Notes: generated by a model from the sequence alone, not told the origin. Positions 10,390 to 31,560 are shown, counted from the stretch's first letter. The stretch is DNA of 64,000 nucleotides from Bacteroidota bacterium (GCA_051715425.1 JBPXJS010000011.1:132215-196214); one strand, 5' to 3'. Made by a program: numbers and translations.

Positions 10390-10760
10390 TTGAGAAGACT
10401 TGCGGGTTAGCCACGAATGACCACGAATTTATTTATTGAGAAGACTTCCGCGTATTGCCACACGCGTCAAGCCGCAGGCATGAGATTTCACAGATATACT
10501 TTTGAGAAGACTTCTGAGAGTAGTAGCTGCGCCTGTCAAGCTGCAGGCATGAAATTTCCACGAATTTTATTTTAAGACTTTTGCTCCCACTATGGCGGGT
10601 CTATAACCAATGTCTAATGTCCATTGACCAAACCAAGCCGCGCCTGTCAAGCCGCAGGCATGAAATTTCCACAAATTGTATTCACGAATTTTATTTAAGA
10701 TATTAACGCCCGCAATGGACAAGCGAGCCTTGACTCTCGAATTGCCGTACAGGGATGACA
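10390..10760. repeat. cluster of 'E' interspersed repeat units (left island boundary)
   Basis: 3–4 units of ttgagaagactt(c/g)cg...cgcctgtcaagccgcaggcatgaaattt(c)cacgaatt, each with an 8-bp-stem hairpin (catgcctg/caggcgtg). Reverse-complement copies at 31100–31560 and 63220–63372. Confidence 0.85.
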
Positions 10761-10785
10761 ACACTCTCATTCAACATTTCCTCAA

Positions 10786-11608
10786 CTTCGAACTTCCAAA
10801 CCAATAAAACTCCGGGAAACGCAATATCCTAACTTAACATTTAAAATTTAACATTTAAAACTCAGCATTCAACATTTCAATAACTTCGAACTATTGAACT
10901 TCGAATATCTTAAATAATATGATGTTTTCTTAATTAGAAAGCCCTGAGTCGTTTTGCTCACAGATTTCACAGATTTGCACAGACCCCTTAGCCAAACCCG
11001 GCAAACAGAAAAATAAAACTTCCTAACTTCGAACTACCCAACTTCGAACTTCTTAACTTAACGCAAAGGGCGCAACGGTTTCGCAAGGAACGCAAAGAAA
11101 TATCGGTTGTAAACCAGATTTTCCGCTATGCGCAACTTCCCAACTCAACATTTAAAATTTAACATTCAAAATTTCGAAATCTTCGAACTCCCAAACCAAT
11201 AAGATTCCGGGAAGCGCATCATCCCAACTTAACACTTAAAATTTAACATTTAAAATTCAGCATTCAACATTCAGCATTCAACATTTCAAAAACTTCGAAC
11301 TTCCAAACCAATAAGATTCCGGGAAGCGCAACACCCCAACTTAACATTTAAAATTCAACATTTAAAACTAAAAGATCCGCATTCAGCATTCAACATTTCA
11401 AAATCTTCGAACTTCCAAACCAATAAGATTCCGGGAAGCGCATCATCCCAACTTAACACTTAAAATTTAACATTTAAAATTCAGCATTCAACATTCAACA
11501 TTTCAAAAACTTCGAACTTCCAAACCAATAAGATTCCGGGAAGCGCAATATCCTAACTTAACACTTAAAATTTAACATTCAAAACTCAACATTCAGCATT
11601 CAACATTT
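10786..11608. repeat. 'F' tandem minisatellite (about 105–112-bp unit)
   Basis: Four near-perfect units beginning cttcgaacttccaaaccaataagattccgggaagcgca at 11181, 11293, 11405 and 11510. Degenerate copies from 10786. One inverted copy at 30978–31071. Confidence 0.9.
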
Positions 11609-12148
11609 TCATCCCATTTCATTTTCCAGTAACGAAAAAAGAATCGAATCTTCATAATTGCCAGCAGTATAAACGTGTTGTCTTAGTATGCCTTCTTTGG
11701 TAAAGTGGTTGTTTTGCAGGATGCTGATGGATGCGATATTATCAGTTGCGGTGATGGCTTCTATTCTGTGCAGTTTTAATTCGTTGAAACCGTAAGCGAT
11801 GATGGCTTTAACGGCTTCGGACATTAATCCTTTTCTTTTATAGGAATCTTCGTGCATGATATAGCCTATTTCTGCGCGGTGGTGGTCTTTGTTCCAGTTG
11901 TGCAGGCCGCAGCGACCAATAATGCGGCCGGATTCTTTATCTGTGAGCAGAAATAATAAAAAGCTGCGGTTATAGGCAGCATATCCGTTCAGGTGTTTGT
12001 ATTCTTCGTTGCGGTATTCTTCTTCGGAGCGGTGACCCAATACTTTTTTAATTTCTTCTTTGGGGAGGGTGGTAAAAATGGTATTGATATCAGCAGGCGA
12101 AAGTCCTGTGAGAAAGAGTCTGTTGGTTTCGAGGGTTACAAGGTTCAT
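11609..12148 (-). CDS. GNAT family N-acetyltransferase (RimJ/RimL-like)
   Basis: 179 aa with acetyl-CoA binding motifs (RGKGLMSEAVKAII, HRIEAITATDNIASISIL). Confidence 0.8.
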   Translation of the reverse strand: MNLVTLETNRLFLTGLSPADINTIFTTLPKEEIKKVLGHRSEEEYRNEEYKHLNGYAAYNRSFLLFLLTDKESGRIIGRCGLHNWNKDHHRAEIGYIMHEDSYKRKGLMSEAVKAIIAYGFNELKLHRIEAITATDNIASISILQNNHFTKEGILRQHVYTAGNYEDSILFSLLENEMG

Positions 12149-12197
12149 TGGGGGAAGGATGTTATGTTGAAATTGGTGTTTTTTTATTCAAATATGC

Positions 12198-13079
12198 TTA
12201 CTTTTTAAAATACTTGTAGTCATAACTAAAAGCTTGTTCAAAAACAGGTTCACCGGAAGTGTTGATGAGAAAATGCTTTTCTGATAGGATATTACCAAAA
12301 TGATCAAATTCGCAAAAGATACGTTCAGCATGTATGTAATGATTGTTATTTTTATTCCTAAATGCATACCGGTTTACAGTAACTGATTTGTAATCTCTGC
12401 TATAATGATACGTTGTAACCCACTTAACAGGTATACTGCCAACTGTTCTTGTTATCCAGCGATTTATTATTCCCCTTTCTGTTTTAGTATGTTTCACAAG
12501 ATAACCCAAACTATCAAAGATATATTGCTCTTGTGAGTAGCGTGTTTTAATCGTTTTCTTAGGTTCATGGGAAGTTGTTTTTTTTGCGATATCAGGTTGT
12601 TTGCTGCAATCTAAAAAAATTGTATCAGGGTTTATTGCGGCATATGAAAACCAACCGATCTCCGGGTTTATTTTTTTAATAAATCCGTCCGGACTATAAT
12701 AGATTTCGCGCCATAAAAATGAGTCGTTAGCCATTTTCGAGTGGTATATGAATAGTTCTTTTATGCCTTGTTTTCGAATGCGGCATATATTAAAAGTGTC
12801 TATAATAACTGAATGCGGAGGCTTCATGTTTTTATTATTCCGGTCAATAACCAACGTATAAATTTCATACCGGCAGTTGAAAATAGGATTGGTTTTGTCT
12901 GTTTCTATGATGGCGTGTTGGCTCTTTAATTGCTTTGGAAGGAGAAATAGAACCAAAGATAAAATCAATACAGTGTGCGCTCTTGCAATCACATAATATA
13001 TCTGAGATTTGGTAGGTAAACTCTTCAATTTGATCAAATCATACATAAACGTTATTTCGCTAATCAGTTTTTTTAACAC
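12198..13079 (-). CDS. hypothetical protein with YD/MORN-variant (YwqK-like) repeats
   Basis: 293 aa. N-terminal hydrophobic segment, then repeated YxxDxxGxL-type motifs. Resembles the neighbouring 14075–15259 protein. Confidence 0.45.
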   Translation of the reverse strand: MLKKLISEITFMYDLIKLKSLPTKSQIYYVIARAHTVLILSLVLFLLPKQLKSQHAIIETDKTNPIFNCRYEIYTLVIDRNNKNMKPPHSVIIDTFNICRIRKQGIKELFIYHSKMANDSFLWREIYYSPDGFIKKINPEIGWFSYAAINPDTIFLDCSKQPDIAKKTTSHEPKKTIKTRYSQEQYIFDSLGYLVKHTKTERGIINRWITRTVGSIPVKWVTTYHYSRDYKSVTVNRYAFRNKNNNHYIHAERIFCEFDHFGNILSEKHFLINTSGEPVFEQAFSYDYKYFKK

Positions 13080-13103
13080 CTATAAGTTCTGATGAGTTAA
13101 TTC

Positions 13104-13778
13104 TTACTGAAACCTAAAAACAATAGGTACTATAAGGCAGAAACTTTGGGGTATTCCATTGAGCTTAGGCGGACTTGAAAACTTCATTTTTCTAAGGACC
13201 CTTGCTGCTTCTTTATTCAGGGAAACATGATCTCCTTTTATAATGGCTATTTTTTCCATGGTTCCATTAACACTTAAGGTACATGATAAGATAACTCGCC
13301 CCTCAATACCATTTTCTCTGGCATAAACCGGATAATTTAATTTTCCGGACAAATATTCGCTAAATTTTTTTTCACCACCTGCCAAAACGGGTGCTGTATA
13401 TCCTAAAGAATCATTATCTTCAAATGTATTCACATATCCTGCATTAAATCGGTTAGCATTACAAGCGGTGTCCTTATAGTTCAACTCAAAATCAAAGTTC
13501 AGTTTTTCCAGCCCAAAGTTTGTTTCAATGTACCAGATGCCGAAAGGTTCACCATAATTATCCTCACATCTAATCGTGATATCTTTTTTAATATCCCGAA
13601 TTTCATTAAGGGTTCTTCCATCAAGCAGCTTGGTGGTGGTAAGGGAATAACTGGCTTTTTCTGCAGTTGTTTCTTTTCTCAGGTATTGGTCCTTATAATA
13701 AGTAGTTGTTTGGGCATAAACATGGAAACTAAATATAAACAGTAGAGCAATAAGGAATAGTTTGTTCATGTTTGGCAT
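13104..13778 (-). CDS. secreted protein with C-terminal TonB-C-like domain
   Basis: 224 aa. Signal peptide (…HVYAQ). C-terminal ENGIEGRVILSCTLSVNGTM...IIKG motif typical of the TonB C-terminal domain. Confidence 0.55.
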   Translation of the reverse strand: MPNMNKLFLIALLFIFSFHVYAQTTTYYKDQYLRKETTAEKASYSLTTTKLLDGRTLNEIRDIKKDITIRCEDNYGEPFGIWYIETNFGLEKLNFDFELNYKDTACNANRFNAGYVNTFEDNDSLGYTAPVLAGGEKKFSEYLSGKLNYPVYARENGIEGRVILSCTLSVNGTMEKIAIIKGDHVSLNKEAARVLRKMKFSSPPKLNGIPQSFCLIVPIVFRFQ

Positions 13779-14074
13779 GTTATGCTAATGGTTGATATTA
13801 ATAGAAAGGTAAAATTAAGGAAATGGGTTTGGGAAACAAAGAGGGATAACCAAAATCAAACCCTTAAACCGATGCAGAAAAGGACGCACCTGAAATTGAA
13901 AACCCATAAGGGATAACTGGAAAAGTCTTTCACCCAAAAAGCAACCGAAACACCCCGAAATATAACCAGATATGCATCCCGCTGCTTAAGCAGGATTCGT
14001 TTAAACCTTATGTGTTGGCGGCAGTTTTGCTTTCACCACGAAGCTGTCTCGGTTCAATTTTGAAGAGATGCTTA

Positions 14075-15259
14075 TTAATAGTAGTATCTAGTTAGTTGGG
14101 TAATTTTGTTGTTGTAAATTACTTTGCTCTCATACAGTAGTCCCTTTAAATTGTAACGGAAATAAGTTTCTGATTTGTTGTTCTTATTGTCAACTGAAAT
14201 TTCAGAAGTCAATTTCTCTTTTTCGTAAGTATAAAAGTAGTTGGTGCATGTTTCTGATGAATTCCTTATGGAGCATTCACTTGTGATTTGGTTTTTGCTA
14301 TTAAACTTTGTAACGATTTTATTTGTGCTGCTTCCAAATCTTGCTTCGGTATTATATATATTTGTTACGACTTTTCCCGAATCAGAATATTCAAATATTG
14401 TTGTAGATTCCCAGTAAGGAAGAATGGTCGTGAAATACCAACCAGTTGAATCAACTTGCTTAATTAAATTTCCGATGTTGTCGTAGTAATAATATTTTTT
14501 GGAATGAACTTTGCCTTCTTTTGTATACCAAATCCATGTTCTCACTTTCCCGTTTTCGTAATAAGTGTAATCATCGTTTAAATATCTTGGGTCACAATAG
14601 ATACACTTAACTGAACCTGTGTCGGGTTTGTAACTGCTGGTTGGTAAATACCTCGTGCTGTCTCTTGTGAAGTAGCGACTAATCTTCTGTCCTTTCTCAT
14701 TGTAATAGGTTTCGTAAATCTCAGCTTTTACTGAACGAAAATGGAAAGTGTCCTTTGTGTATTTTGAAATTGATATGTAGTCATCAAAATATTGAAAGCA
14801 ATCATAAGTTTGGTTTCCTAAGCTGTCATATTTGTATGTTGTAATGTTCTGATAAATGTTGTATCGAAGTGAACCATATTCTTTTCTTTTCTCTATGCCT
14901 AATGGGCTGTCAATGTCAATAACAACCCTTCCGTTTTTGTCATAGTAAGTTTGAAAGGAATACCAGGTCAAATATGAAGGTCCATGTGATTGAAAAACTC
15001 TATTGTATTTCTTGCCTGAAACTTTGCTACTATCTTTATCAAACACCTGTCTGTAAAGAAGTAAACTATCTTTTGAAACTTTGCCGTTCTTTTTTATTTG
15101 ATAGGAGTATGCCTCAATTTTCTTCACATTGTTTTTGATAAAGTCCTGATAAGTCCAACCCTGAAACTCGTCACCACTGAAACTGAAAATGGTATTGCTC
15201 ATTTGTCCGAACAGGTATGTTGTTGTCAGTGTCAATATGCTTGCTAAAATTAATTTCAA
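14075..15259 (-). CDS. MORN-variant repeat protein (YwqK-family antitoxin/immunity-like)
   Basis: 394 aa. Signal peptide, then Tyr-rich repeats of the YYENGKV / YYDKNGRV / YYYDNIGNL type. Confidence 0.5.
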   Translation of the reverse strand: MKLILASILTLTTTYLFGQMSNTIFSFSGDEFQGWTYQDFIKNNVKKIEAYSYQIKKNGKVSKDSLLLYRQVFDKDSSKVSGKKYNRVFQSHGPSYLTWYSFQTYYDKNGRVVIDIDSPLGIEKRKEYGSLRYNIYQNITTYKYDSLGNQTYDCFQYFDDYISISKYTKDTFHFRSVKAEIYETYYNEKGQKISRYFTRDSTRYLPTSSYKPDTGSVKCIYCDPRYLNDDYTYYENGKVRTWIWYTKEGKVHSKKYYYYDNIGNLIKQVDSTGWYFTTILPYWESTTIFEYSDSGKVVTNIYNTEARFGSSTNKIVTKFNSKNQITSECSIRNSSETCTNYFYTYEKEKLTSEISVDNKNNKSETYFRYNLKGLLYESKVIYNNKITQLTRYYY

Positions 15260-15472
15260 TGTCTGTCTGTTTTATGCAGTCCGTTCAGTGTTTGCAGGAC
15301 GCCCAAAAAATTGCAACCAATCGGGTCAGGCCGGGGAATTTCACCCTTACCTTCCAACGGGGGATGACTACGTCCGCGACAACTGGGGCAAGCCAAGTTG
15401 CTTTGTCAAGGTCGTTTTCAGTCGCAAGATTTTTATAATATCGTTTTAGTCCTCTTTGCTTCTTCATTAAAG

Positions 15473-15817
15473 TCAAATTTGATAACTGATTTTCAAAGTA
15501 TCATTTATTTTGTCCGTTAGCATTTCAACTAGTTCTTCATTCATAAATTCATAGTCGTCCGCAATATTTAGAATTTCAATTATTGGCAACTCCAAATGTT
15601 TGTAAAGCCCCCAAATTTTTGCTCGTTGTCCCGGTTCCATTACAAAAACCAAGTCAGCCCAATTCAAATCATTCTCTGATATTTTCCTATCACTTTTTGG
15701 GCTAAGTCCAGCTGAACGAATATTGAAACGATTGTCATTTTTAAAAATGTGTTCCGCTGTCCTGCTACGCTTTTTATTTCGTCCACAAACTACAAGTATG
15801 TTAGGTCTTTCTGTCAT
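15473..15817 (-). CDS. low-molecular-weight protein-tyrosine-phosphatase / ArsC-like family protein
   Basis: CX5R(S) P-loop (VCGRNKKRS) near the N-terminus. Start chosen at MTERPNILVV; the ORF track extends to 15856. Confidence 0.6.
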   Translation of the reverse strand: MTERPNILVVCGRNKKRSRTAEHIFKNDNRFNIRSAGLSPKSDRKISENDLNWADLVFVMEPGQRAKIWGLYKHLELPIIEILNIADDYEFMNEELVEMLTDKINDTLKISYQI

Positions 15818-15979
15818 TGTTGTTGGTCGTCTTAAAATTGGGCATAACGGTGGCAATATGGCCTGAAAGGGATTGCGGAGAACGTCCCTATCAACTTACA
15901 ACGAAATTGATGCGGCTGATGAGCTTCGCATACCACTAAAGCCCTTTTGGGCTATATTGCATGTTGTACACCATTTATT

Positions 15980-16483
15980 TTATACTATTTTTCCTACTTT
16001 CTTTAAATAAATAATCAATCCACCAAGTAAAATGCCTAGGCCAATAAAAAAGTATCCACCATTTTTATCTTTACAACCGCGCATAAAATAGGGTTTCCCA
16101 TCTTTATCAATGAATTGGATCAGTCTATTCAATCTATTATCTGTCTCTTTTGGATCTTCATCAAAATACACAACAATCTCATCTCCAACTTTCAAATCAT
16201 CTATTTTTTCTAAATGTGGTTTAAAATCACCAAAATCCTTTCCAACAAATATTGTAAAAACCTTGGAGTAATTATCAATTAATAAATATCTAAATTTACC
16301 AATATGTCGTAATGGCAATTCTTCGAAAGTCTTATCGAGAAAGACTATCCTACCTGTCAACTGGTTAAATTCAGTTTTATCTTTTGTCCCACGAATCATA
16401 ATAATGGAACCTAAAATCAAGATTGTAATTATACCAGCTATCGATTTTTTAAATATTGGATATTGTCGCTTTGTATTCATCAA
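15980..16483 (-). CDS. hypothetical membrane protein
   Basis: 167 aa with N- and C-terminal TM helices. Confidence 0.45.
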   Translation of the reverse strand: MMNTKRQYPIFKKSIAGIITILILGSIIMIRGTKDKTEFNQLTGRIVFLDKTFEELPLRHIGKFRYLLIDNYSKVFTIFVGKDFGDFKPHLEKIDDLKVGDEIVVYFDEDPKETDNRLNRLIQFIDKDGKPYFMRGCKDKNGGYFFIGLGILLGGLIIYLKKVGKIV

Positions 16484-16787
16484 TCAAATATTTTTCTTAT
16501 TAGTACGCTGAGTTCTTTTTTAAATGGTGTACAACGGCAGACTCCCGCAATCATGCGGGACAAGTTGTGAAATAAGCTATCCACAGCCCTGTATGTAAAT
16601 GTTGGAATAAAACGTCACAAATGCAAGATAAAAAAGCATCACCTTAGATTGAAAACCATAAGAAATAACTGGAAAAGTCTTTCACCTAAAAAAGCAGCCG
16701 AAACTTCCCTGCATGTTGCTGGGCGGGCATCAAACATAGCTCAAATCGAAGTAAAACTTCGTTTGAACCTTATTTGTTGCAGTTTTG

Positions 16788-17558
16788 TTATTCGCCATTA
16801 TCGTCATCATTATATTCGTCAACATTATTTTGGTTTTTGAAACCAATTATTTTTGTCAAGCCATTATTTTTTACGTTGAAAGTCTTAAATTCGATTTTAT
16901 CCAGTTCATTTATTTTTAAATTTAATTGCTCCTTTGTCAAGAGTTTAAGGTTGTAAAGCCAGACCAAATTATTATACAGTTGGTCGTAGGGCAAGTATTC
17001 ATTAAGGGTGGAGTATTTGCCAACTAGATATTTATCGCGTCTTTGTAACAATTCTTTTATAAATTCATCAACACTTTGTTTGTATCGCTTCGTCCCGATA
17101 AATTCTATTGCATTTGTATTATCTGATTGTGTAAGATGAATAGTGTTTTTCTTTGTTATCAGATATACAATTAAAAAAAATACACTTGTTGTTAAGTGAA
17201 ATATTTCAGCGCCATTTCCCACGTGTCCACCATCAAGTCTTTTAAAAAAAACTGAAATAGCAATGATTAGAAATAAAAGGGATATAACTAACCAGAGTAG
17301 CTTTCGTGATTTTTCAATAATAATTTTTGAACCTATGTCTTCAAAATCAACAAAAGTATCAGAGCTTGAAGCTATTCTTTTCTTAATAAGCCTTAATCCA
17401 GTGTCTTCAATTATATATTTGAATCTATCGAAATTTGTGTCAAACTGTTTGAATTCCATATTTGAAGGTGTCATTAAAATTGCAACTAACGTCAGACGGT
17501 GAAATAAACTATCCACAACCTTGTTTGTAAATGTTGCAATAAAACCCCAAAAATGCAA
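16788..17558 (-). CDS. hypothetical membrane protein
   Basis: 256 aa with two central TM helices and an acidic C-terminus. The first ~25 codons overlap repeat D, so the true start may be the internal Met near 17474. Confidence 0.45.
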   Translation of the reverse strand: MHFWGFIATFTNKVVDSLFHRLTLVAILMTPSNMEFKQFDTNFDRFKYIIEDTGLRLIKKRIASSSDTFVDFEDIGSKIIIEKSRKLLWLVISLLFLIIAISVFFKRLDGGHVGNGAEIFHLTTSVFFLIVYLITKKNTIHLTQSDNTNAIEFIGTKRYKQSVDEFIKELLQRRDKYLVGKYSTLNEYLPYDQLYNNLVWLYNLKLLTKEQLNLKINELDKIEFKTFNVKNNGLTKIIGFKNQNNVDEYNDDDNGE

Positions 17559-17647
17559 GTGAAGGCAGGATTAAGTTTCCTGTAATCTCAGATTGAGTTA
17601 AACAAGACAATACTGTAACTTACCCTATCCCACTCTGTTCGAGCATT

Positions 17648-17860: not shown

Positions 17861-17861
17861 A

Positions 17862-19830: not shown

Positions 19831-19854
19831 ATTCTTCTGATTTTTGTAGATTTT

Positions 19855-22272: not shown

Positions 22273-22275
22273 ATT

Positions 22276-23994: not shown

Positions 23995-24029
23995 ATTCTG
24001 AGATGTTTCGTTATGTTTCCTGTTGAGTT

Positions 24030-24150: not shown

Positions 24151-24163
24151 TTTGAGTTGTAAT

Positions 24164-25180
24164 TTACACTGTTAGGTTTATTTTGTGCCGTTTCCCGTTT
24201 AGTAAAAAGTCAATTTGTATTTTGTTGTGAAGTATAATTTCAAGATGTCCAAAGTCAAACTCTTTATGATGATTTGGACAAAGTAAAATTATGTTCTCAG
24301 GTGTTTCTCGTCCTTTTAAGTATTTGGCTTTTATGTGTGCAGCTTCAATATACTTGCTTCCGTTTTTTTTCATTATTGTAGTAGAACAAATTTGGCATTT
24401 AAAGTCCCGGAGAATTTTTATTTGTGTTATTGTTTTGTTGTCGCGTTTATATCTTTTGTGATTGACAATAATTTCTTCAGGGTCGTTGTCCTTTAGATTC
24501 TTTAGGTCTTTTAGAATGTCTGCCTTTGATTTATTCTTTTTGAAGTATATTTCAAGTTCGATTTGTTCCTTTTCGTCATTTGAAACAAAGGTCAATTGAA
24601 ACTTTTTACCTGTATAGTATTCATAAATAGATAAAAGTTTCTTAAAATCTATTTCGTTTGTTCCAACTTTCGATAATTCAGTTAATTCGTCAAAAAGTAT
24701 ATGTTCAGCGAATTTATCATCTTTATAGGTGAAACCAATTTGCCCAACCATTCTTTCACTTGAATTGTCTTTGTAATTGTTCGCGTCAAGTGGTAAAGGA
24801 AATAAAATTGAAAAATCCCTTTCGGCCTTGATGTTTGCCCAATAAGCATTCTTTTGAAATGCAGTCGGAAGTTTTCTTGCTTCATTAAACGTTTCCGCTT
24901 TGCCATATACTCCAACAATTTGTCCTTTGTTTTCGTCAGTGTTCCTTGTGTAAAATATTATGAGTCCGCCCTTTTCGAATTTCACTGGAGCATTTTTCCA
25001 TTTAACGAAACCGTTTATAAACTTTTCGGTGTCAACTGCTTTTTTGTTGAAGTTGAAATTTAATGATTCACCACCAACATTGTCTTGAGCGTATTTATGC
25101 CCTGCTTTAGGATTTATATAGCTGTTGTTTCTCCAACCAAATGGATTCCAAGTAATGTTTGCGATTATTATTTTACTCAT
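24164..25180 (-). CDS. HNH endonuclease with N-terminal PUA/EVE-like domain (putative modification-dependent restriction enzyme)
   Basis: C-terminal HNH (CQIC...AHIKAK...LLCPNHHKEFDFGH). N-terminal beta-barrel-like signature GGLIIFYTRN...GQIVGVYGKAE resembling EVE/PUA. Confidence 0.6.
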   Translation of the reverse strand: MSKIIIANITWNPFGWRNNSYINPKAGHKYAQDNVGGESLNFNFNKKAVDTEKFINGFVKWKNAPVKFEKGGLIIFYTRNTDENKGQIVGVYGKAETFNEARKLPTAFQKNAYWANIKAERDFSILFPLPLDANNYKDNSSERMVGQIGFTYKDDKFAEHILFDELTELSKVGTNEIDFKKLLSIYEYYTGKKFQLTFVSNDEKEQIELEIYFKKNKSKADILKDLKNLKDNDPEEIIVNHKRYKRDNKTITQIKILRDFKCQICSTTIMKKNGSKYIEAAHIKAKYLKGRETPENIILLCPNHHKEFDFGHLEIILHNKIQIDFLLNGKRHKINLTV

Positions 25181-25184
25181 TTCG

Positions 25185-26378
25185 TTAATTTTGTGTTGCT
25201 ACAATAGTTAATGTTGTTCGCTGGAGTTTTGCCAAATCGTTCATTGTTTGAGTAAATACTGTACGTGCATGTTCATAATTGTAGTTACACAACAAAAGAA
25301 TAACGGGACCTTTTCCTTGCCATATCTCAGAGTACTGTGAAACCTGTCCTTTTGCTCGTTGAATTGCTCCCGCACTTGAATCTCTTTTCATCTCTATCAA
25401 AATGGTGTCATTCACTACAATATCTGCTCGTCCTCTGCCTGCCTTATCAGCAATAGGGTACTCTAATTCAATTGATGCACCTGGCAAATGCTTTTTCAAA
25501 TGGCGGTATAACCTGTCTTGATACTCGTACTCGTAGTATGCTCCTTTGGGATGCCAATTTTGTAAAGCAATCACAAAGTCATTAAAGAGGTTTGAATTGC
25601 TTTTTGCAATAACAGCACTTACTTGTTCCTCTTGTTTTGCATTAATGACTAATTCACTTTCCACTTGAGTTTGGATAGTTGCAGCTTGGTTAGTGTATTT
25701 TGAATCCGCTTTATTTTTATAATCAAAAAGTTGTCGCAGTTCTGATTTGATTCGTATAAATATCTGTTGATCTCTTTTGTAGAGATAAAATAAGATTGCT
25801 ACACCAAACAGAATAGCAACCCAGTAGTAGTGGTTTGTAAATCTTTCGAACTCACGGAAAGATGAAAGTCGTATGTTGAACAAATTTTCAATCGGCTTGC
25901 GAACAAAAACAGATAAATTTTGAAACGCTTTCCAACTGATACCACCAACAAATAAAACTCGTCCAATTTTGTAGATGTTCTCATTTTGTCCGTTTTTCTT
26001 GGTTACTTCAATTTCATCTTTCATTATTTCGTAGTAAGTTAATAATCTAGATTTTGCTCTTTCCCAAGTCCAGTTGCCTTTGTCGTCACGCCATGAACCT
26101 ATAAAAGCAAGAACAATTACTAAGGTGAAAAGGAGAAAGATTAATGTTGAATAGTAGGTCAGTCGATCAGAGTCAACACCGAGTAGCTCGTCAAGAAGCG
26201 GTGCAATTATTAAAACCCATACGCTACCCCAAATAGAAAATTTTATACGTTTGCCATAAAGTTTACGATCTATGTTATCAACTGTATCAAATAGTTTAGT
26301 AACGGCAGTCTGAGTCTGCACTAAGGTTAAGTTTAAATAATCTTTAGCCCCTTTTTGTTGTTCGGTCATATTGTCCAT
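25185..26378 (-). CDS. membrane-anchored protein with C-terminal PD-(D/E)xK (Mrr-like) nuclease domain
   Basis: 397 aa with 3–4 TM helices in the N-terminal half. C-terminal ...RADIVVNDTILIEMKRD... (D...E-x-K). Ends 5 bp before the EVE–HNH gene. Confidence 0.5.
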   Translation of the reverse strand: MDNMTEQQKGAKDYLNLTLVQTQTAVTKLFDTVDNIDRKLYGKRIKFSIWGSVWVLIIAPLLDELLGVDSDRLTYYSTLIFLLFTLVIVLAFIGSWRDDKGNWTWERAKSRLLTYYEIMKDEIEVTKKNGQNENIYKIGRVLFVGGISWKAFQNLSVFVRKPIENLFNIRLSSFREFERFTNHYYWVAILFGVAILFYLYKRDQQIFIRIKSELRQLFDYKNKADSKYTNQAATIQTQVESELVINAKQEEQVSAVIAKSNSNLFNDFVIALQNWHPKGAYYEYEYQDRLYRHLKKHLPGASIELEYPIADKAGRGRADIVVNDTILIEMKRDSSAGAIQRAKGQVSQYSEIWQGKGPVILLLCNYNYEHARTVFTQTMNDLAKLQRTTLTIVATQN

Positions 26379-26552
26379 TTTAAAATTGTTTATTTGAGCT
26401 TGTTGTATGATGTAAGCACAGCAGTCAATGCTTTCATTATAGCTTGAGGTCTTTCAACACTGAAGTTTTGTTTATAATGGTTTGCCTGAAAGGCGCTGAC
26501 CCAGCTGTAGCGAATTACTTCCTTAAGATGGTTTACATTGCTCAGTCATTTG

Positions 26553-27581
26553 TCAGCCAGTTATTTTTTTTAACTCGTCCACCAATAGTTTACTTTCCAT
26601 TTTAGATAGATAAGGTGTCTTTAAGGTTCTTGCCCAAAAGAATCCGTGCTCCAATAATTCTGTCACTTTGTAGAATGGCAGATAGTTTGTAATTCCATTT
26701 TCTTTGCTTGGGGGTTTTGTAAGCCATTTAACACTAACAAAACCTTCGTCATCGTCTAAGTCCTCATTGTATTCTTCTTTAGTATTAGTGAGCACTTCAC
26801 CTGCAGCGATAATTCCATGATGTTTATGAGAAAGGAAAACAATGTCCCCCTTTTTTAAATAGTAAGCAAAGTATGCTTGTCCTCCATAGGCTGAAGCTCT
26901 TTTTTTATTAAGCATATCCCATACACAGTCTTCGTTGTAAGTTCTATTTGTATCTAGGATTACGCCTTTTTGTTGGTTTGGATTAATGTGTGTATCGTGA
27001 GGTTTCGCGAAGAATTCAAAGTATAATTCATTACCAAGACTATAAATCCTATAAGGAATGAACTCAACTGAAAGTCCTTTAGTTTTCCAATATGTCAAAG
27101 ATTTTGCTAACGTCTCGTTAGCGGCACTTCCAACAACATAAAGATGTTGGTTTCTGTTAAACTCTGCTGGAGTTAATGCCCTGTCAAGTTGGAAGTCCTC
27201 TTTGTGAGCATCCAAAAGCTCCTTTTCAGGATTTTGTTTTTTGAAATAGTAATTTAATTTGTCATAACCCCATTGCCCAGCGGTTTGTGTATAACGTAAA
27301 ATTTGAACCATAGCATCGTCACCAACTACACCACGCTTTAATTCAAAAATTACAAGGTCTCCCTTTTCTGTAACTGCATAGATGTCCGCTTCGCCTTGAA
27401 AACTTCTTTCTTGGTGGATTGGCATTAATGCGTTGTCTTCGAAAAGTTTATTCAATAAATTATTAGCAAGTAGATTTTCTAGATCCTTTTCGATTTTGCT
27501 TAACTGGGAAAAGTCGTAAAACGGCAGTGGCTCCAGCCCGTTAGGGGTATTGTTGTTTTCAAGTGATAATTTGTATAGCAT
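26553..27581 (-). CDS. PD-(D/E)xK nuclease fused to C-terminal EVE domain (putative type IV restriction endonuclease)
   Basis: N-terminal GEADIYAV...GDLVIFELKRG (D...ExK). C-terminal KKGDIVFLSHKHHGIIAAGEV matches the EVE GDLVFFYHS...GIVGIAEV core. Confidence 0.6.
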   Translation of the reverse strand: MLYKLSLENNNTPNGLEPLPFYDFSQLSKIEKDLENLLANNLLNKLFEDNALMPIHQERSFQGEADIYAVTEKGDLVIFELKRGVVGDDAMVQILRYTQTAGQWGYDKLNYYFKKQNPEKELLDAHKEDFQLDRALTPAEFNRNQHLYVVGSAANETLAKSLTYWKTKGLSVEFIPYRIYSLGNELYFEFFAKPHDTHINPNQQKGVILDTNRTYNEDCVWDMLNKKRASAYGGQAYFAYYLKKGDIVFLSHKHHGIIAAGEVLTNTKEEYNEDLDDDEGFVSVKWLTKPPSKENGITNYLPFYKVTELLEHGFFWARTLKTPYLSKMESKLLVDELKKITG

Positions 27582-27679
27582 AGTGTTTTTGTCTTTAAGT
27601 TGCTAAAAACTAGTTATATATTCTCCACATATACACCTTTCCTTTATCCGCCTGCATAGATTTACATCAGGATCCAGTT

Positions 27680-27990
27680 ACCTCCACAAACCTCCCCAAC
27701 CCTCCCATCAAAATCAAGAGTGAAAACACTCTTTTTTCATAGGGAAAACATTCTCTTTTTTGGAGTGCCTAACGGGCGTTTGGCGGCTGTAAGCCATGTA
27801 TTTATTAGCAAATAGGGCAAAATGGTGGTAAATGGCCAATTTTTTTTCTGAAACCCCGGTTTTAGTTTGTGAAAGGGGAGAATGGGTTTGTTAAGGTGAA
27901 AATTAGAGGAAAATATGGTGGTGCTTTTAAGGGATCAGGGAGCATAAAAGATCTGTTTATATGCCGGTATTAGTTGTCAGAGCTCAACGT
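27680..27990. repeat. repeat A copy 2
   Basis: About 88–90% identical to 21800–22100 by inspection. Immediately upstream (5') of gene 26553–27581. Confidence 0.85.
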
Positions 27991-28000
27991 TTCTGGGGTT

Positions 28001-28125
28001 TAATAAGTTGGCAATTTCGGAGACAAAAACTGTCTGCCAGTAATAGACTTGATACTAAGCACAAAGCTTCATTTAAGTACTGAGCCCGCTTTTTTGCCTA
28101 ACCCGTGTTAGCTGCTTGTGCTTCT
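28001..28125. repeat. repeat B copy
   Basis: ggcaatttcggagacaaaaactgtctgccag...ctaagcacaaagcttcatttaagtactgagcccgc...agctgcttgtgcttctgtc. Confidence 0.8.
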
Positions 28126-28131
28126 GTCACG

Positions 28132-29043
28132 TTAAAAGAATTGGAGGAATGTGGTACTAAACTTTACTGTTATCGTTCCACCGTATTCCACTTTATTAAA
28201 GTCATCTGTGCCTGCGGTTCTAATGCTCATAAAAGGGGTAACTCCAATCTTTCCATTGGGATTGTCTTTGACTAGTGGATAAAAAAACACCCAGCTTTCA
28301 AGTCGTAATCTATTCAAATTGTCAAACGGATTGTTAGTGCCTTTTTTGCCAGTGAAGTCATAATATACTGTTGGTGAATAACTAAAACTACCTTTTCCTG
28401 AATAGATTTGTAATGAGAAAGCAGGTGAGAATGTTGGTTTGACACTTGGTGCATCTATTGTCATGTTGATAGTAGTAACCACTCCGTTACTATTTGGAGG
28501 GTTCACAACTCCAACCTCATTTGCCGCTTTCCAATCGTATGAATACCTTAGTCTAAATTGAGGAGAAAATTGTTTAGCCTCATTCGCACCTTTTGTGAAG
28601 AAACCAATATATTTTAATTCGAATGCGTATGAACTCTCAGTATTTTTAAGTTCGTTTGTTTTTGAACCTGAGGGATAATATTTAAACTCACTTGAGCCAT
28701 ATTCAAATTGTGCTCCTATGGAATGTCTTGCAATTCCACCAGTCTCAGCAGTATTGTCTTTGGTGTATTGAATAGCAAGTATGCCCCGCCAAGTAGATGA
28801 AAACCTATCTAATTGTAAAACATTGTCGGACTTTGATGTCAATGGCATCCTTACTGTTGGTCTTAAAATAAATGTATTTCCTTTCTCAACCTTTTCCCAG
28901 TTGAGTTCGGGTCCAGCTTCAATTTGTCCATCTTTTATTGAAGTTGTTCCATTAATGAATGGAAGTATTTTGAATTTTGTGTCTTGAGCAAATCCAATTG
29001 TTGGCAGAAGCATTAAAATGCTATAAACTAATTTCAGTTTCAT
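28132..29043 (-). CDS. putative outer-membrane beta-barrel protein
   Basis: 303 aa. Signal peptide (…IGFAQ), alternating amphipathic beta-strand pattern, C-terminal aromatic residue (…LQFF). Confidence 0.55.
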   Translation of the reverse strand: MKLKLVYSILMLLPTIGFAQDTKFKILPFINGTTSIKDGQIEAGPELNWEKVEKGNTFILRPTVRMPLTSKSDNVLQLDRFSSTWRGILAIQYTKDNTAETGGIARHSIGAQFEYGSSEFKYYPSGSKTNELKNTESSYAFELKYIGFFTKGANEAKQFSPQFRLRYSYDWKAANEVGVVNPPNSNGVVTTINMTIDAPSVKPTFSPAFSLQIYSGKGSFSYSPTVYYDFTGKKGTNNPFDNLNRLRLESWVFFYPLVKDNPNGKIGVTPFMSIRTAGTDDFNKVEYGGTITVKFSTTFLQFF

Positions 29044-29335
29044 AATATCCTCCTTGTAGTTTTAAAGTTAAACTTTGGTCGTCTGCCGTTCCTGGCAAGT
29101 CAATACCAAATTTGAAAGAAGCGTTGTCAATTCCAACGACCCTAATTTTTAAGCGAACTTGTGCATCAGGAATTTTTCCTGTCCAAGTTCTTTTCTTTGT
29201 TCCGTCTGATTGAATTACCTTAACTCCATTTACAAATGCATAAAACATAGTCAGACTACCAGTAACTGGTTCAAGTGTCAATGTAAAGTCTCTTGTAGCT
29301 TCCATTGAGAGTGTAACATTTTTTTTCTTCGCCAT
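29021..29335 (-). CDS. hypothetical protein
   Basis: 104 aa. 23-bp overlap with the downstream OM protein gene. Confidence 0.45.
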   Translation of the reverse strand: MAKKKNVTLSMEATRDFTLTLEPVTGSLTMFYAFVNGVKVIQSDGTKKRTWTGKIPDAQVRLKIRVVGIDNASFKFGIDLPGTADDQSLTLKLQGGYYETEISL

Positions 29336-29409
29336 TTTATTATTTGTTTAAATAGTTTTTATGAGGTTTGATAGCATAGCAGCTAACGGTTTGCAACTAC
29401 AAGAAGTTG

Positions 29410-29530
29410 GTGATTCCGGAGCACAAAACTGTCTACCAGCACCAAGCTTGTTACGAAGTACAATACTTCATTTAACCACTGACCCGTGAATTTCTTGTAG
29501 GTGCTTTTAGCTGTAGTGCTTCTTCTCATT
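29410..29530. repeat. repeat B copy
   Basis: ggtgattccggagcacaaaactgtctaccag...ttacGAAGTAcaaTACTTCatttaaccactgacccgtg...agctgtagtgcttcttctc. Confidence 0.8.
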
Positions 29531-29541
29531 GTCGACTAAGT

Positions 29542-29781
29542 TTAGTTTTTAGCAAGAGTAACCTTTACTTTGTCAATAATGGTTTGCTTTTTGTCGCCAG
29601 CCGATATTCTTTTTACCATTACTATAAAACTGTCAACTTCTGTTTGGAACTTTTCTGCTGAAACACTAACTCGCTTTAAGATGGCATCTCTGTTAGTATT
29701 AGTCCAAGGCATTTGAGATTGAAGTTCCCAAATGTCGTCTGTGGCAAGCTCTTTAGAATTGTTGTTGTAACCCAAAGCCAT
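29542..29781 (-). CDS. hypothetical protein (possibly a 3' fragment of an interrupted gene)
   Basis: 79 aa. An upstream in-frame 18-codon ORF (ATG 29928) ends at a TAG and the frame then continues into this ORF. Confidence 0.35.
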   Translation of the reverse strand: MALGYNNNSKELATDDIWELQSQMPWTNTNRDAILKRVSVSAEKFQTEVDSFIVMVKRISAGDKKQTIIDKVKVTLAKN

Positions 29782-29929
29782 AATGTCGCTAAGAAAACTA
29801 TCAATAGCCTCAAACTTTGCAACACCTCTTTCCTTAATATCTGTGTCGTTAAGTTTTGATGAAATGCTGTCCTAAATTAACTCTTTAACAGTAGTTTCAA
29901 CTTCTTGTCTTTCTTGTTGTGAAATCATT

Positions 29930-30544
29930 TTATCTTATTTTTCGTTTGTGATTAGTTCCTGTCAACTTGCTTAATTTTGATATGGATGTTTCCAAATGCT
30001 TTTTTAGGATTCTTTTTAGTTCTTTTATTTCTTCAATGTCATTCACATTATTAAGTGATATTATTTCATCAAAATTTATTCCGTGTCTATATGTCCTCGC
30101 TGAAATTGGACCTTGTATTAAAAAGAGGAATTGACAATATGGAAAAATGGTTTTTATCATTTCTGCTTTTTGAGAATAGGTCAGAATTTCATGTGTGTTA
30201 GGCTGTCCTTTTTTAACTTCAAGTATTACAAATGGAAGTCCAACATGGTGTGAATTTTGTCCACTATCTTTTTCGAGTATTACATCAATAATTGTGTGTT
30301 CTTCTTTAGAAATTCGGCTGTCTTTTTGCTTTACTGTTTTGTCAAATAGAACTTTATAAATAGTAATATCTTGTTTGAAACACCATAATTCAAGTTTTGT
30401 GTTATTGTCTGTCGGGATATAGATGTGTTTGTAGGGAACCGGAACCTCCGTGCCAATTTGATACGGAAATTTTACAACGTCTTTAAGTTGCTCAATTAGT
30501 CTATCTCTAAGTTCTGTTTCTGTCAAATGTTGTGTTGTCGTCAT
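29930..30544 (-). CDS. hypothetical protein with PD-(D/E)xK-like motif
   Basis: 204 aa. ...HHVGLPFVILEVKKGQ... resembles a restriction-endonuclease-fold E-x-K motif. Confidence 0.45.
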   Translation of the reverse strand: MTTTQHLTETELRDRLIEQLKDVVKFPYQIGTEVPVPYKHIYIPTDNNTKLELWCFKQDITIYKVLFDKTVKQKDSRISKEEHTIIDVILEKDSGQNSHHVGLPFVILEVKKGQPNTHEILTYSQKAEMIKTIFPYCQFLFLIQGPISARTYRHGINFDEIISLNNVNDIEEIKELKRILKKHLETSISKLSKLTGTNHKRKIR

Positions 30545-30734
30545 ACGTTATTTTTAGCAATATTGATTTTATTTTGCACCGTCACCATAGCATTACAGCC
30601 AACTCATAAATATAAGCAACACATAATTTTGTATCTTTACATATTCACTAAGTTACCTATTGTACTTTTTAATATTTATTTCTCTTCATAAATTGAACAA
30701 ACCTTTATAACCGTTTCTGACAATTCATACCTGT

Positions 30735-30895
30735 TTGCAAACACAATACAAACCTCCCCAACCCTCCCATCAAAATCAAGAGTGAAAACACTCTTTTTTC
30801 ATAGGGAAAACATTCTTTTTTTTTACAGAGCCTAACAAGCGTTTGATGGCTGTAAGCATTGATTTTATTAGAAAGCAGGGCAAAATGGGAGCAAA
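30735..30895. repeat. repeat A copy 3 (truncated)
   Basis: The first ~160 bp match the other copies (caaacctccccaaccctcccatcaaaatcaagagtgaaaacactc...) and then diverge. Confidence 0.8.
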
Positions 30896-30977
30896 CGATG
30901 AATAGACATTCTTAAATGGTATAATTTATTACCACCCCATAACTGGTTTTTAGTGCTCAGTGCTTGGTGCACGGTGG

Positions 30978-31071
30978 GAATGGAATGTTGAATGCTGAAT
31001 TTTGAATGTTAAATTTTAAATGTTAAGTTAGGATATTGCGCTTCCCGGAATTTTATTGGTTTGGAAGTTTA
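30978..31071. repeat. single inverted 'F' unit (right island boundary)
   Basis: Reverse complement of the 11181–11608 unit (…gaatgttgaatgctgaattttgaatgttaaattttaaatgttaagttaggatattgcgcttcccggaattttattggtttggaagtt). Confidence 0.85.
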
Positions 31072-31099
31072 TTTTCATAGTTCTACTTCATTCTACCTG

Positions 31100-31560
31100 C
31101 GCCTCAACCTTTGCGTCTTATGCGTCTCTGCGAGAGTCATTGCCTGTTCCGCAACGCAAGAGTCAAGGCTCGCTTGTCCATTGCAGGCGTTAATATCTTA
31201 AACAAAATTCGTGAATACAATTTGTGGAAATTTCATGCCTTCGGCTTGACAGGCGCGGCTTGGTTTGGTCATTGGTCATTGCCTGTCTCGCTATTGCGGG
31301 AGTCATTAGTCAATGCCTGCTTTGCTATTGCTGGAATCATTTTAAAATAAATCTGTGGCTAACCCGCGCAAGTCTTCTCAAAAAATCATCTGTGGAATCT
31401 CATGCCTTCGGCTTGACGCGTGTGGCTTGATTTGGTCATTTGTCAATGGGCATTGGTCATTGGACAATGGTTAATGATTAGTTTTTCTCGCAAGTCTTCT
31501 CAATAAATAAATTCGTGTTCATTTCATGCCTGCGGCTTGACAGGCGTGGCTTATTAGTGG
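31100..31560. repeat. cluster of inverted 'E' repeat units (right island boundary)
   Basis: Three units of gcaagtcttctcaa...aattcgtg...atttcatgcct(g/t)cggcttgacaggcg(t/c)ggc. 31140–31270 is a near-exact reverse complement of 10620–10750. Confidence 0.85.

Follow-up and report, generated by a model that had tools for sequence, protein, structure and literature searches.

A probable integron-type gene-cassette array between msrB and a symporter gene in a freshwater Bacteroidota chromosome

What kind of element places about 20 genes of unrelated predicted functions, all read in one direction, between two ordinary host genes? The question is raised by the window, i.e., the 64-kb stretch of a Bacteroidota genome analysed here (GCA_051715425.1 JBPXJS010000011.1:132215-196214), in which an earlier note had described a discrete, horizontally acquired or recombinationally maintained accessory or defence island bounded by inverted repeats. 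As that note had stated, every ORF of at least 100 aa at 11609-30544 lies on the minus strand, while the plus-strand ORFs in this range are short and overlap minus-strand ORFs. The shift in composition that it had proposed to look for is present as well, with a GC content of 0.354 for 11609-30980 vs. 0.408 and 0.409 in the flanks (about 0.41 outside), and no 19.4-kb stretch to the right of the island falls below 0.397. Furthermore, the order FAD protein, endonuclease I, msrB and symporter is contiguous in related species (synteny, 18 loci; the symporter orthologue was found at 80 loci). In these 18 species, msrB and the symporter are separated by only 44-310 bp, and the block is therefore an insertion. 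The two flanking genes are:

8974-10365, minus strand: SDF/DAACS sodium:dicarboxylate symporter, left flank, a conserved host gene (Pfam PF00375, E 1e-107)
31597-32142, minus strand: msrB (SelR), right flank (Pfam and synteny); next come endonuclease I, which bears a T9SS sorting domain, and then the FAD protein

The description as a discrete, horizontally acquired island is supported by this insertion and composition, and its accessory and defence character by the cargo, in which a search for defence systems revealed a cluster of known anti-phage systems, namely PD-Lambda-1 (E 7e-114), SoFic (3e-21) and PDC-S11 (4e-20), along with weak HNH matches. Other cargo comprises GNAT, TonB_C, lipoproteins and proteins without assigned function. 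Immunity families gave no Pfam or NCBIfam match at the thresholds used, and many ORFs are without any match and may hide immunity genes.

The anatomy of the island is best explained by a feature that the earlier note had missed, namely five imperfect palindromes of about 130 nt (xxxxAAC…GTTxxxx), each located just 3' of an ORF stop and co-oriented with that ORF. The model CM R1 matched all five, always on the minus strand, and in addition one remnant:

29373-29518, minus strand: attC-like site 1, R'' AGCTAAA, R' GTTAGCT (CM R1 133 bits; fold z = -2.4)
27973-28119, minus strand: attC-like site 2, R'' AGCTAAC, R' GTTGAGC (CM R1 94.5 bits)
22121-22257, minus strand: attC-like site 3, 5' half intact (R'' AGCTAAC), 3' half degenerate with R' mutated to GTAAGCT (CM R1 51.7 bits; alignment)
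18724-18869, minus strand: attC-like site 4, R'' TTATAAC, R' GTTAGGT, beginning about 5 nt past the stop of ORF 18871-19830 (CM R1 130 bits; fold)
15834-15975, minus strand: attC-like site 5, divergent, R'' GTACAAC, R' GTTATGC, beginning 5 nt past the stop of ORF 15980-16483 (CM R1 42 bits, E 4e-8)

Such attC-like sites between genes point to an integron-type cassette array, and we regard the block as an array of this type in the chromosome of a freshwater Bacteroidota, inserted between msrB and the symporter, with a probability of about 0.8. The array would be CALIN-like because no integrase lies nearby. Provided that the sites count as attC, they also show the spacing of a CALIN (at least two attC less than 4 kb apart and no integrase within 4 kb), since 1.4 kb separates those at 29.4 and 28.0 kb, and 2.9 kb those at 18.8 and 15.9 kb. 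Several observations speak against this reading: neither a recombinase gene nor an attI was found in the window, there are five or six sites for about 20 genes, no site was recognised in the leftmost 4.2 kb of the array, some "cassettes" measure 2-6 kb and hold several genes, the sites differ from canonical attC in geometry, and the exact island proteins were found in one sample only.

Support comes from the site family beyond the window. Its conserved core occurs on at least 120 metagenome contigs, and plasmids of Chryseobacterium and Emticicia carry the family as well; the sites form co-oriented arrays at intervals of about 1.2 kb. In an alignment of 95 sequences, 96.7% of the stem is paired, with compensatory changes at 11 pairs, and none of 500 shuffles reached the observed covariation. 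TAAC/GTTA is nearly invariant, in agreement with the inverted core and imperfect palindrome of attC (RYYYAAC/GTTRRRY). With about 128 nt, the sites fall within the 57-141 nt of canonical attC, but unlike the symmetric spacer of canonical sites, the unpaired spacer beside their R boxes is 1 nt on one side vs. 5 nt (AAAMC) on the other. The stem contains conserved internal mismatches, and sequence conservation extends over the ~70 nt at the centre. A scan for the family yielded 223 sites at 100 loci. Of the 65 loci with several sites, 64 have them all in one orientation; the median spacing is 1186 nt, and a co-oriented ORF stop lies at most 60 nt upstream for 67% of 199 sites (median 19 nt). The succession of ORF and site, co-orientation and a deduced G|TT crossover make up the organisation of gene cassettes.

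The boundaries between units follow a rule. Across the family, the 5' box of a site pairs with the bases after the GTT of the preceding site (mean 3.19 of 4 positions, perfect in 37 of 58 cases), compared to 2.02 for its own 3' tail and 1.75 for random pairing, and none of 5000 resamples reached 3.19. This pairing is the signature of integron cassettes. In the window, the pair GTTAGCT (29387)/AGCTAAC has both members at model-defined positions, and GTTAGCT occurs a single time on the window's minus strand. The pairs GTTATAA (20988)/TTATAAC and GTTGTAC (16535)/GTACAAC are also perfect; of the three, two use a GTT without independent definition, and a blind search of the window's intergenic 7-mers gave a number of matches close to the chance expectation.

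Based on these boundaries, a cassette would hold one ORF, or a few in the same orientation, and a few bases further on a ~130-nt imperfect palindrome with xxxxAAC at its 5' and GTTxxxx at its 3' end. A tyrosine recombinase would cut at G|TT, so that cassettes could leave as circles and enter at another site, and circular excision followed by reinsertion would leave each cassette beginning with bases complementary to the 5' box of the site that it carries. Read in this way from the msrB side, the array is predicted to comprise the following units:

30601-30895, minus strand: array-proximal non-coding element heading the array, 3' half of a ~310-nt repeat plus ~200-nt leader (duplicated at 20986-21185), ending GAG|TT
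29387-30602, minus strand: first cassette, ORFs 29930-30544 and 29542-29781, start G|TTGGCT (30603)
27988-29386, minus strand: cassette, ORFs 29021-29335 and 28132-29043, start G|TTAGCT (29387), perfectly complementary to its own R'' AGCTAAC
22111-27987, minus strand: large cassette, probably fused (CM R1, domain and defence-profile matches), with a ~310-nt repeat (27680-27984), a PDC-S11/NucS-like ORF (26553-27581), ORF 25185-26378, an HNH protein (24164-25180), a site remnant (24071-24123) and PD-Lambda-1 (DUF4041/SNIPE + T5orf172; 22276-23994)
20988-22110, minus strand: cassette, ~310-nt repeat 21801-22108, ORF 21209-21532 and repeated ~200-nt leader 20986-21185 ending TATTTATGAG|TT
18738-20987, minus strand: cassette, SoFic-like Fic 19855-20955 and tyrosinase-like ORF 18871-19830, start G|TTATAA (20988) complementary to R'' TTATAAC
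18625-18737, minus strand: ORF-less palindromic unit of 113 nt between two GTT junctions, arms GTTAGGTTGTGAAAA and TTTTCACAGTCTGAC
16536-18624, minus strand: one or more cassettes, ORFs 17862-18548, 17648-17959 and 16788-17558, second-type repeat 16600-16795
15848-16535, minus strand: cassette, ORF 15980-16483 and site 5, start G|TTGTAC (16535) complementary to its own R'' GTACAAC, a match of limited weight given the chance level
11609-15847, minus strand: distal part of the array, GNAT 11609-12148, ORF 12198-13079, TonB_C 13104-13778, ORF 14075-15259 and LMWPc-like ORF 15473-15856 (Pfam; GC 0.360)
13850-14045, minus strand: second intergenic repeat, one copy within the distal part (repeat alignment A4)

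No attI was identified in the window. The element at 30601-30895, which has no homologue in the other loci, may be a candidate attI-like or second-type site.

Does the island owe its borders to this mechanism, or to the repeats that frame it? The mirrored repeats seen by the earlier note are real and comprise two families, E and F:

10390-10760, plus strand: left E-repeat cluster, three units of ~68 nt with cores at 10466, 10535 and 10646 (repeat search)
10786-11608, plus strand: F minisatellite with a period of 112 nt, present in 4.2 tandem copies at 11142-11607, and the unit 10791-10879
30978-31071, minus strand: right F unit, reverse complement of the left F units (inverted-repeat matches)
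31100-31560, minus strand: right E-repeat cluster of three units, the cores of which lie at 31250, 31417 and 31541 (repeat search)

The proposal that these inverted arms are the termini of a single mobile or recombinationally maintained 21-kb element, which entered the spacer between msrB and the symporter whole, like a composite transposon or foldback element, does have evidence in its favour. The insertion is missing in related species, the arms fill the spacer up to both flanking genes, and they mirror each other over 138 nt (10616-10753 vs. 31143-31280, 93% complementarity) and over 87-89 nt of the F unit (10791-10879, with tandem copies to 11601, vs. 30981-31069; 92-94%, at best 89 nt at 94%). 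The 24-nt E core occurs seven times in the window vs. not once in 100 shuffles. Two further E units are, however, located at 63230-63380, next to tRNA genes and away from any island, which shows that E is dispersed; neither a transposase in the window nor a recognisable target-site duplication at the borders accompanies the arms, and inverted repeats permit inversion rather than excision. Moreover, E and F had no match in any related locus or metagenome array examined, so that comparable arrays exist without them, and in a related genome (L022) an array with attC-like sites of the window's family occupies another spacer of this gene block. We therefore consider this origin improbable, and the role of mobile-unit termini that the earlier note had assigned to the arms is unproven. 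Since the arms share 93% with each other vs. 83% with the third E cluster at 63.2 kb, the borders may nevertheless be specifically related, e.g., as an inversion substrate. We regard the mirrored repeats as a separate, genome-specific layer that could let the whole array invert.

The ~130-nt repeats themselves could, on the other hand, be selfish MITE- or REP-like elements, terminators or RNA elements behind genes, in which case unrelated insertions would have built up the island as an ordinary defence hotspot. The repeats share their imperfect palindrome and their position just behind genes with many REP and MITE elements and terminators, and the sequence conservation of the central ~70 nt as well as the modest single-strand fold z-scores (-0.3 to -3.9) fit such elements. 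This explanation appears highly improbable to us, since it leaves unexplained the near-complete co-orientation of the sites, about 1.2 kb apart, between small, unrelated low-GC ORFs, as well as the association of the repeats with a specific recombinase family described below. The variable bases outside AAC/GTT pair with the preceding tail, and neither with the site's own tail nor as direct repeats, which is not predicted by transposition with target duplication. The repeats also gave no Rfam match.

If the block is a cassette array, which recombinase would serve it? The earlier note had seen no integrase or transposase in the window, and this was confirmed by Pfam searches of the flanking ORFs and by tblastn of the 64 kb with IntI1 and Xer-like queries (the IntI1 reference being an approximate query), which detected no recombinase gene or remnant. 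Elsewhere in the site family, Xer-like recombinases are located 5' of the sites and co-oriented with them in L091, L150, L122 and L198. Among 72,556 plasmids, the best match of this recombinase is the very Chryseobacterium plasmid on which the sites were found; there it stands at the head of at least five sites in its own orientation, and a Rufibacter plasmid shows the same layout with attC-like sites of about 70 nt. The recombinases of these sister arrays lack IntI1 residues ~195-243, which form the IntI-specific domain, and score 185-219 bits vs. the curated integron-integrase cut-off of 265 bits (TIGR02249); an adjacent intI with this additional domain was found neither in the window nor in the sister arrays. 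The recombinase that accompanies the site family is a full-length homologue (37.6% identity) of the integrase heading a Parabacteroides rAID-1 array with Tdi1/SUKH immunity genes, and this array, as read from its sequence, follows the boundary rule as well, with xxxxTAAC matching the preceding ATTAxxxx. We infer that the partner of the window's sites is an XerA/XerD-like enzyme without the IntI-specific extra domain, which would act in trans unless the array is now inert. Its family heads the rAID-1 arrays of gut Bacteroidales as well as comparable plasmid-borne arrays in Chryseobacterium, Rufibacter, Pontibacter and Fulvitalea.

The rAID-1 loci, i.e., recombinase-associated acquired interbacterial defence clusters of gut Bacteroidales (Ross et al., 2019, bioRxiv 10.1101/471110; follow-up 10.1101/2025.05.03.651265), have conserved, repetitive intergenic sequences which their authors called "reminiscent of integrons" (bioRxiv 10.1101/471110). 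Both systems share co-directional, short genes of low GC (at most 41%) and such intergenic sequences, the window having about 20 genes at a GC of 0.354 with repeated sites where rAID-1 asks for at least two co-directional genes. The 5' XerD-like recombinase of rAID-1 (at least 44% identity to BF9343_RS08045) is, however, lacking in the window, and the host belongs to a freshwater, non-Bacteroidales lineage. The sites of the window and of the Parabacteroides array are different sequence families, with about 130 nt and a GTTA core vs. about 50-60 nt and an ATTA core in rAID-1. Whereas orphan immunity genes against T6SS or polymorphic toxins dominate in rAID-1, the recognisable cargo of the window is anti-phage (PD-Lambda-1, SoFic-like) and miscellaneous.

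Integrons and CALINs (PMC4889954; PMC9024848) resemble the array in the unit of ORF and site, the co-oriented sites, the AAC...GTT inverted core around an imperfect palindrome and a stem kept in structure rather than in sequence. As in integrons, the deduced crossover at G|TT would place at the start of each cassette the bases needed to complete its site, and anti-phage cargo like that of the window has been reported for chromosomal integrons (10.1101/2024.07.02.601686). Differences concern the asymmetric spacer beside the R boxes and the sequence-conserved centre of the sites, as well as the associated recombinases, which are without the IntI-specific insertion, stay below the integrase cut-off and have the same orientation as the cassettes. 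Reverse-orientation integrons are found in Spirochaetota, e.g., Treponema (PMC9668308). Their integrase is co-oriented with the cassettes, as on the Chryseobacterium, Rufibacter and Pontibacter plasmids and in L091 and L150. The integrases of these reverse integrons are bona fide IntI with the extra domain, whereas the Bacteroidota enzymes are XerA/XerD-like.

The array stands in a phylum where integrons have been reported as almost absent; IntegronFinder 2.0 listed for the Bacteroidetes only In0 elements and one complete integron, in Salinibacter (PMC9024848). We slightly favour the view that Bacteroidota carry a second integron lineage, with attC-like sites of 50-130 nt, a crossover at G|TT, or at A|TT in the gut Bacteroidales, and co-oriented XerA/XerD-like recombinases without the IntI domain. 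In such a lineage, rAID-1 would be the gut branch, environmental branches on chromosomes and plasmids would stock anti-phage systems, and the array described here would be a recombinase-less member served in trans.

In related genomes, the two genes that enclose the island (the minus-strand gene block at 11609–30544) are close neighbors. A scan with the symporter as query and one genome per species yielded 80 loci, mostly from freshwater Bacteroidota MAGs, with best symporter matches of 89–90% protein identity and 83% for the isolate-like genome "Bacteroidetes bacterium UKL13-3". By local tblastn, the order FAD protein, endonuclease I, msrB, symporter was recovered in 23 loci, with 44–310 bp between the msrB end and the symporter in 18 of them, and neither island proteins nor island or border DNA were found in these loci. 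The 21-kb block therefore lies in an ancestrally short spacer and is an insertion. Its GC content is 0.354 versus 0.408/0.409 outside. As described in the earlier note, the block is unidirectional, all ORFs of at least 100 aa in 11609–30544 being located on the minus strand and plus-strand ORFs being short and inside them, and it is flanked by an SDF/DAACS symporter on one side and msrB on the other. The absence of an integrase or transposase from the 64-kb window, stated there as well, was borne out, and tblastn with three Xer-like recombinases and IntI1 (an approximate probe sequence, whose matches are taken as leads) revealed no recombinase remnants in the window. The closest relatives (L001, L002 and L005) were also considered as carriers of islands at the same site and dismissed: their gene order differs here, and the 10 kb preceding the symporter contain no repeats. 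Exact matches to the island proteins, sought as evidence of presence/absence or cassette polymorphism, came from one sample only (SRR31089860), whose contigs break at the repeats.

The internal repeats of the island are imperfect palindromes of ~130 nt on the minus strand, each of which starts 5–30 nt past an ORF stop, opens with ...TAAC and closes with GTTA.../GTTG.... Their conserved core occurs in at least 120 public metagenome contigs, and alignment of 95 copies gave the consensus nnnTAAC-AGCACCTACAAGAAATTGGCGG...CGCCAACTTCTTGTAGCTGC-AAAMC-GTTAnnn, with three stem variants differing by compensatory changes. In a test of the stem structure that we propose, 92% of cells were paired versus 81% in shuffles, the main helix was 96.7% paired with 11 pairs altered on both sides, and neither any of 500 shuffles nor any slid control attained the covariation score; as they arise from few discrete variants, the compensatory changes represent few independent events. 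Rfam searches at gathering and E-value thresholds gave no match within the island. A covariance model of the sites (R1), run without filters, placed five of these attC-like sites in the window, all on the minus strand, in addition to a remnant:

29373–29518, minus strand: site 1, R1 133 bits
27973–28119, minus strand: site 2, R1 94.5 bits
24071–24123: site remnant, central part only
22121–22257, minus strand: site 3, R1 51.7 bits, 3' half degenerate
18724–18869, minus strand: site 4, R1 130 bits
15834–15975, minus strand: site 5, R1 42 bits (E 4e-8), divergent

The same site family is found near the conserved gene block in two relatives of the host, with four sites just upstream of the endonuclease I-msrB-symporter block in L022 (span 56–3953) and one site downstream of the symporter in L002 (12901–13046). 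These sites lie in other spacers than the array of the window, and the neighborhood of this gene block may represent a recurrent landing zone.

Beyond these relatives, R1 identified 223 sites in 100 metagenome loci. In an independent nhmmer search, all sites were on one strand in 64 of 65 multi-site loci, with a median spacing of 1186 nt. A co-oriented stop of an ORF of at least 80 aa was located at most 60 nt upstream (median 19 nt) for 67% of 199 sites, and ORFs of this size covered 74% of the site strand versus 17% of the opposite strand. The family is also carried by a plasmid of Chryseobacterium sp. SNU WT5 (NZ_CP041688.1; 96% identity), by Emticicia oligotrophica pEMTOL01 (79% identity) and by two IMG/VR contigs. 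The Chryseobacterium plasmid also has a group II intron (ltrA, 8995–10311; region 8368–10311), which is encoded on the strand opposite to the cassettes and adjoins an attC-like site (8368–8509), an arrangement that recalls the group IIC-attC introns of integrons.

Integrons recombine at the 3' core, with the crossover between its G and TT, and a cassette, once integrated, consequently starts with the bases completing its own site. Accordingly, the four variable bases before AAC in the head of a site (xxxxAAC) should pair with the four bases after GTT in the preceding tail (GTTxxxx) and not with those of its own tail. In a model-based alignment of the metagenome sites, head and preceding tail were complementary at a mean of 3.19 of 4 positions (perfect in 37 of 58), compared to 2.02 of 4 for head and own tail (perfect in 17 of 126); random pairing gave 1.75 of 4 (sd 0.13), and 3.19 was reached by 0 of 5000 resamples. 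In the window, GTTAGCT (29387) in the tail of site 1 and AGCTAAC in the head of site 2 are fully complementary. The model defines the positions of both, and the minus strand of the window has GTTAGCT only once. Exact partners were also found for the heads of site 4 (GTTATAA, 20988) and site 5 (GTTGTAC, 16535), and near partners for those of sites 1 and 3, the GTT positions in these matches not being independently defined. When the intergenic DNA of the whole island was searched blindly for complementary xxxxAAC/GTTxxxx 7-mers, there were 21 pairs versus ~20 expected by chance (a rough estimate), a rate at which such a search cannot define the remaining cassette borders. Full weight is placed only on the site 1/site 2 pair and the metagenome statistic. 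Cassette coordinates were derived from deduced junctions, with none assigned in the leftmost 4.2 kb (11609–15847), where GCATAAC at 13785 was dropped as a site mark on account of its overlap with the TonB_C ORF start.

Regarding the enzyme, Xer/IntI-like genes were detected by tblastn with the approximate IntI1 query in 6 of 120 metagenome loci. The recombinase gene is located 5' of the sites and co-oriented with them in four loci (L091, L150, L122 and L198), and an additional site is found upstream of it in L088 and L184. The nearest NCBIfam family is NF040815 ("site-specific tyrosine recombinase/integron integrase", XerA-like), with 198–216 bits at a cut-off of 220; the integron-integrase model gave 185–210 bits at a cut-off of 265 and is matched in two stretches, since a segment equivalent to IntI1 residues ~195–243 is missing. 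Searching 72,556 plasmids with the L088 protein (tblastn) gave the site-bearing Chryseobacterium plasmid as top match (55% identity). Its recombinase (WP_143853951.1; 16032–17075, minus strand) heads a minus-strand gene run with at least five sites, every one directly past a gene stop, which wraps the record origin and has a MazEF pair at its end. Distant homologs (36–37% identity) are encoded on Rufibacter, Pontibacter and Fulvitalea plasmids with co-oriented small genes behind them, and all of these plasmid and metagenome-locus enzymes lack the IntI insertion. R1 missed the sites in the arrays of Rufibacter, Pontibacter and rAID, which are shorter and were read by eye. Behind each Rufibacter gene lies a ~70-nt site that looks like a classical attC (xxxxAAC, stem, CGGCCGACGGCC, stem, GTTAGGC), and by eye the boundary rule holds at these junctions (GTTAGGC then GCCTAAC; GTTAGCGG then CCGCTAAC). 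Judged by sequence, this XerA/XerD-like family is a candidate recombinase for such arrays.

A further match to the L088 recombinase (37.6% identity) is located on a Parabacteroides distasonis plasmid (L216, NZ_OY725747.1; 13081–19100), where it stands in front of an immunity-gene array with Tdi1 and SMI1/KNR4 members. This is a typical rAID-1 cluster, i.e., a recombinase-headed immunity-gene array of gut Bacteroidales (Ross et al., 2019). Its intergenic hairpins of ~50–60 nt lie between xxxxTAAC and ATTAxxxx, and, on reading the sequence, head and preceding tail proved complementary at five consecutive junctions. As far as these junctions indicate, the integron cassette rule holds for rAID-1 too, and the array of the window appears to belong to the same broad system, although the two differ in site length, core sequence, host and cargo, and the window's array, having no recombinase, falls outside the formal rAID-1 definition.

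The island borders were proposed earlier to be terminal inverted repeats, and their mirrored arrangement was confirmed: for the E repeat, 10616–10753 pairs with 31143–31280 over 138 nt (93% complementarity), and for the F repeat, 10791–10879 plus tandem copies up to 11601 pairs with 30981–31069 (87–89 nt, 84–94%). The F minisatellite has a 112-nt period (4.2 copies at 11142–11607). E units of ~68 nt are arranged in tandem, with three clusters and a total of eight units in the 64 kb, and the 24-nt E core occurs 7 times in the window versus 0 in 100 shuffles. Two of the E units lie far from the island at 63230–63380, ~570 nt downstream of tRNA-Ser (62463–62553) and tRNA-Pro (62588–62662), and are 83% identical to the border units, which makes E a dispersed intergenic repeat. 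Moreover, E, F and a ~310-nt internal repeat had no real matches in the 80 related genome loci and 120 metagenome loci and are thus genome-specific; being absent from related loci and other arrays, E and F are not part of the cassette machinery. A role of the E/F arms as element termini is rated as unlikely. The arms are nevertheless closer to each other (93%) than to the third E cluster (83%), and they show a striking E-F...F'-E' symmetry. They may be an inversion substrate for the array; alternatively, insertion of the array may have taken place at the center of a palindromic repeat cluster. In a short-read assembly from the same organism, breaks occur at E on either side of the island and at internal repeats.

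The non-coding ~310-nt repeat is present in two full copies (27680–27984 and 21801–22108, 92% identical) and 3' fragments (30742–30895 and 21126–21185), every one at a cassette start. At its end lies a terminator-like hairpin AAAAAGAGTGTTTTCACTCTTGATTTT with a G-rich tract GATGGGAGGGTTGGGGAGG behind it. Rfam gave no match to this repeat, and the 77-aa ORF 21835–22068 within it is probably spurious. A second intergenic repeat of ~190 nt with only two copies (16600–16795 and 13850–14045, 78% identical), one directly and the other ~30 nt past an ORF stop, has no relatives in other arrays; considered as a second attC type, it may represent a further kind of recombination site. A repeated leader (20986–21078 and 30601–30692) upstream of the Fic ORF and ORF 29930–30544 ends exactly at the deduced cassette junction G|TT and contains TATATTTATGAGTT, which resembles the Bacteroidetes −7 promoter box TAnnTTTG. 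Directly behind the 3' core of several metagenome sites (L119, L129, L130, L173, L196, L199), GTYAGRYTGTGAAAA is found, with the contig ending ~20–130 nt past it in L119, L130, L173, L196 and L199. In the window, two inverted copies at 18625–18737 form a 113-nt ORF-less hairpin between two GTT junctions, and the element may be an array end or an attI-derived half-site.

With respect to cargo, Pfam, PADLOC and NCBIfam searches gave the following assignments:

26553–27581, minus strand: PDC-S11 candidate with NucS-like N-terminus
24164–25180, minus strand: HNH protein
22276–23994, minus strand: PD-Lambda-1 (DUF4041/SNIPE + T5orf172), E 7e-114
19855–20955, minus strand: SoFic-like Fic protein, 3e-21
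18871–19830, minus strand: tyrosinase-like protein
15473–15856, minus strand: LMWPc-like protein
13104–13778, minus strand: TonB_C protein
11609–12148, minus strand: GNAT

The earlier designation as a defense island suits the right half of the array, and ~10 island ORFs had no match in the three databases. Chromosomal integron cassettes were described to store anti-phage systems (10.1101/2024.07.02.601686), and the cargo of the window fits this picture. ORFs 17862–18548 and 17648–17959 (17648–18548) overlap by 98 nt and share the motif LPE[SQ]GMGYQ[IV] as well as a DNA repeat (17783–17809/18477–18503), suggesting an internal domain duplication or a frameshifted gene. Outside the island, a VWA-domain gene (36608–38071) lies between the N-terminal (35833–36681) and C-terminal (38082–39035) halves of a split transketolase.

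According to integron surveys, Bacteroidetes nearly lack integrons (PMC9024848), with In0 elements only plus one complete integron in Salinibacter, and a 2024 preprint counts Bacteroidota among clades "previously found without any integrons" (10.1101/2024.07.02.601686), whereas one review, contrary to the surveys, lists the phylum among integron carriers. The rAID-1 arrays, the only comparable system, have been described no further than as "reminiscent of integrons", and according to a 2025 paper it was still not known how they acquire genes (10.1101/2025.05.03.651265). In a limited literature search, which is no proof of absence, we found no published description of the ~130-nt site family or the boundary rule, nor of rAID-1 sites and mechanism. 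Our sequence evidence provides a defined recombination site whose structure was tested, the deduced point of crossover and a rule for cassette boundaries that holds in metagenome arrays and, read by eye, also in the Rufibacter plasmid array and a gut rAID-1 array, together with a candidate recombinase family. Gene acquisition by such arrays hereby becomes a directly testable question. Our findings also suggest that a phylum-wide reservoir of mobile defense and accessory genes is overlooked by standard integron finders, for which the IntI-specific domain is a requirement.
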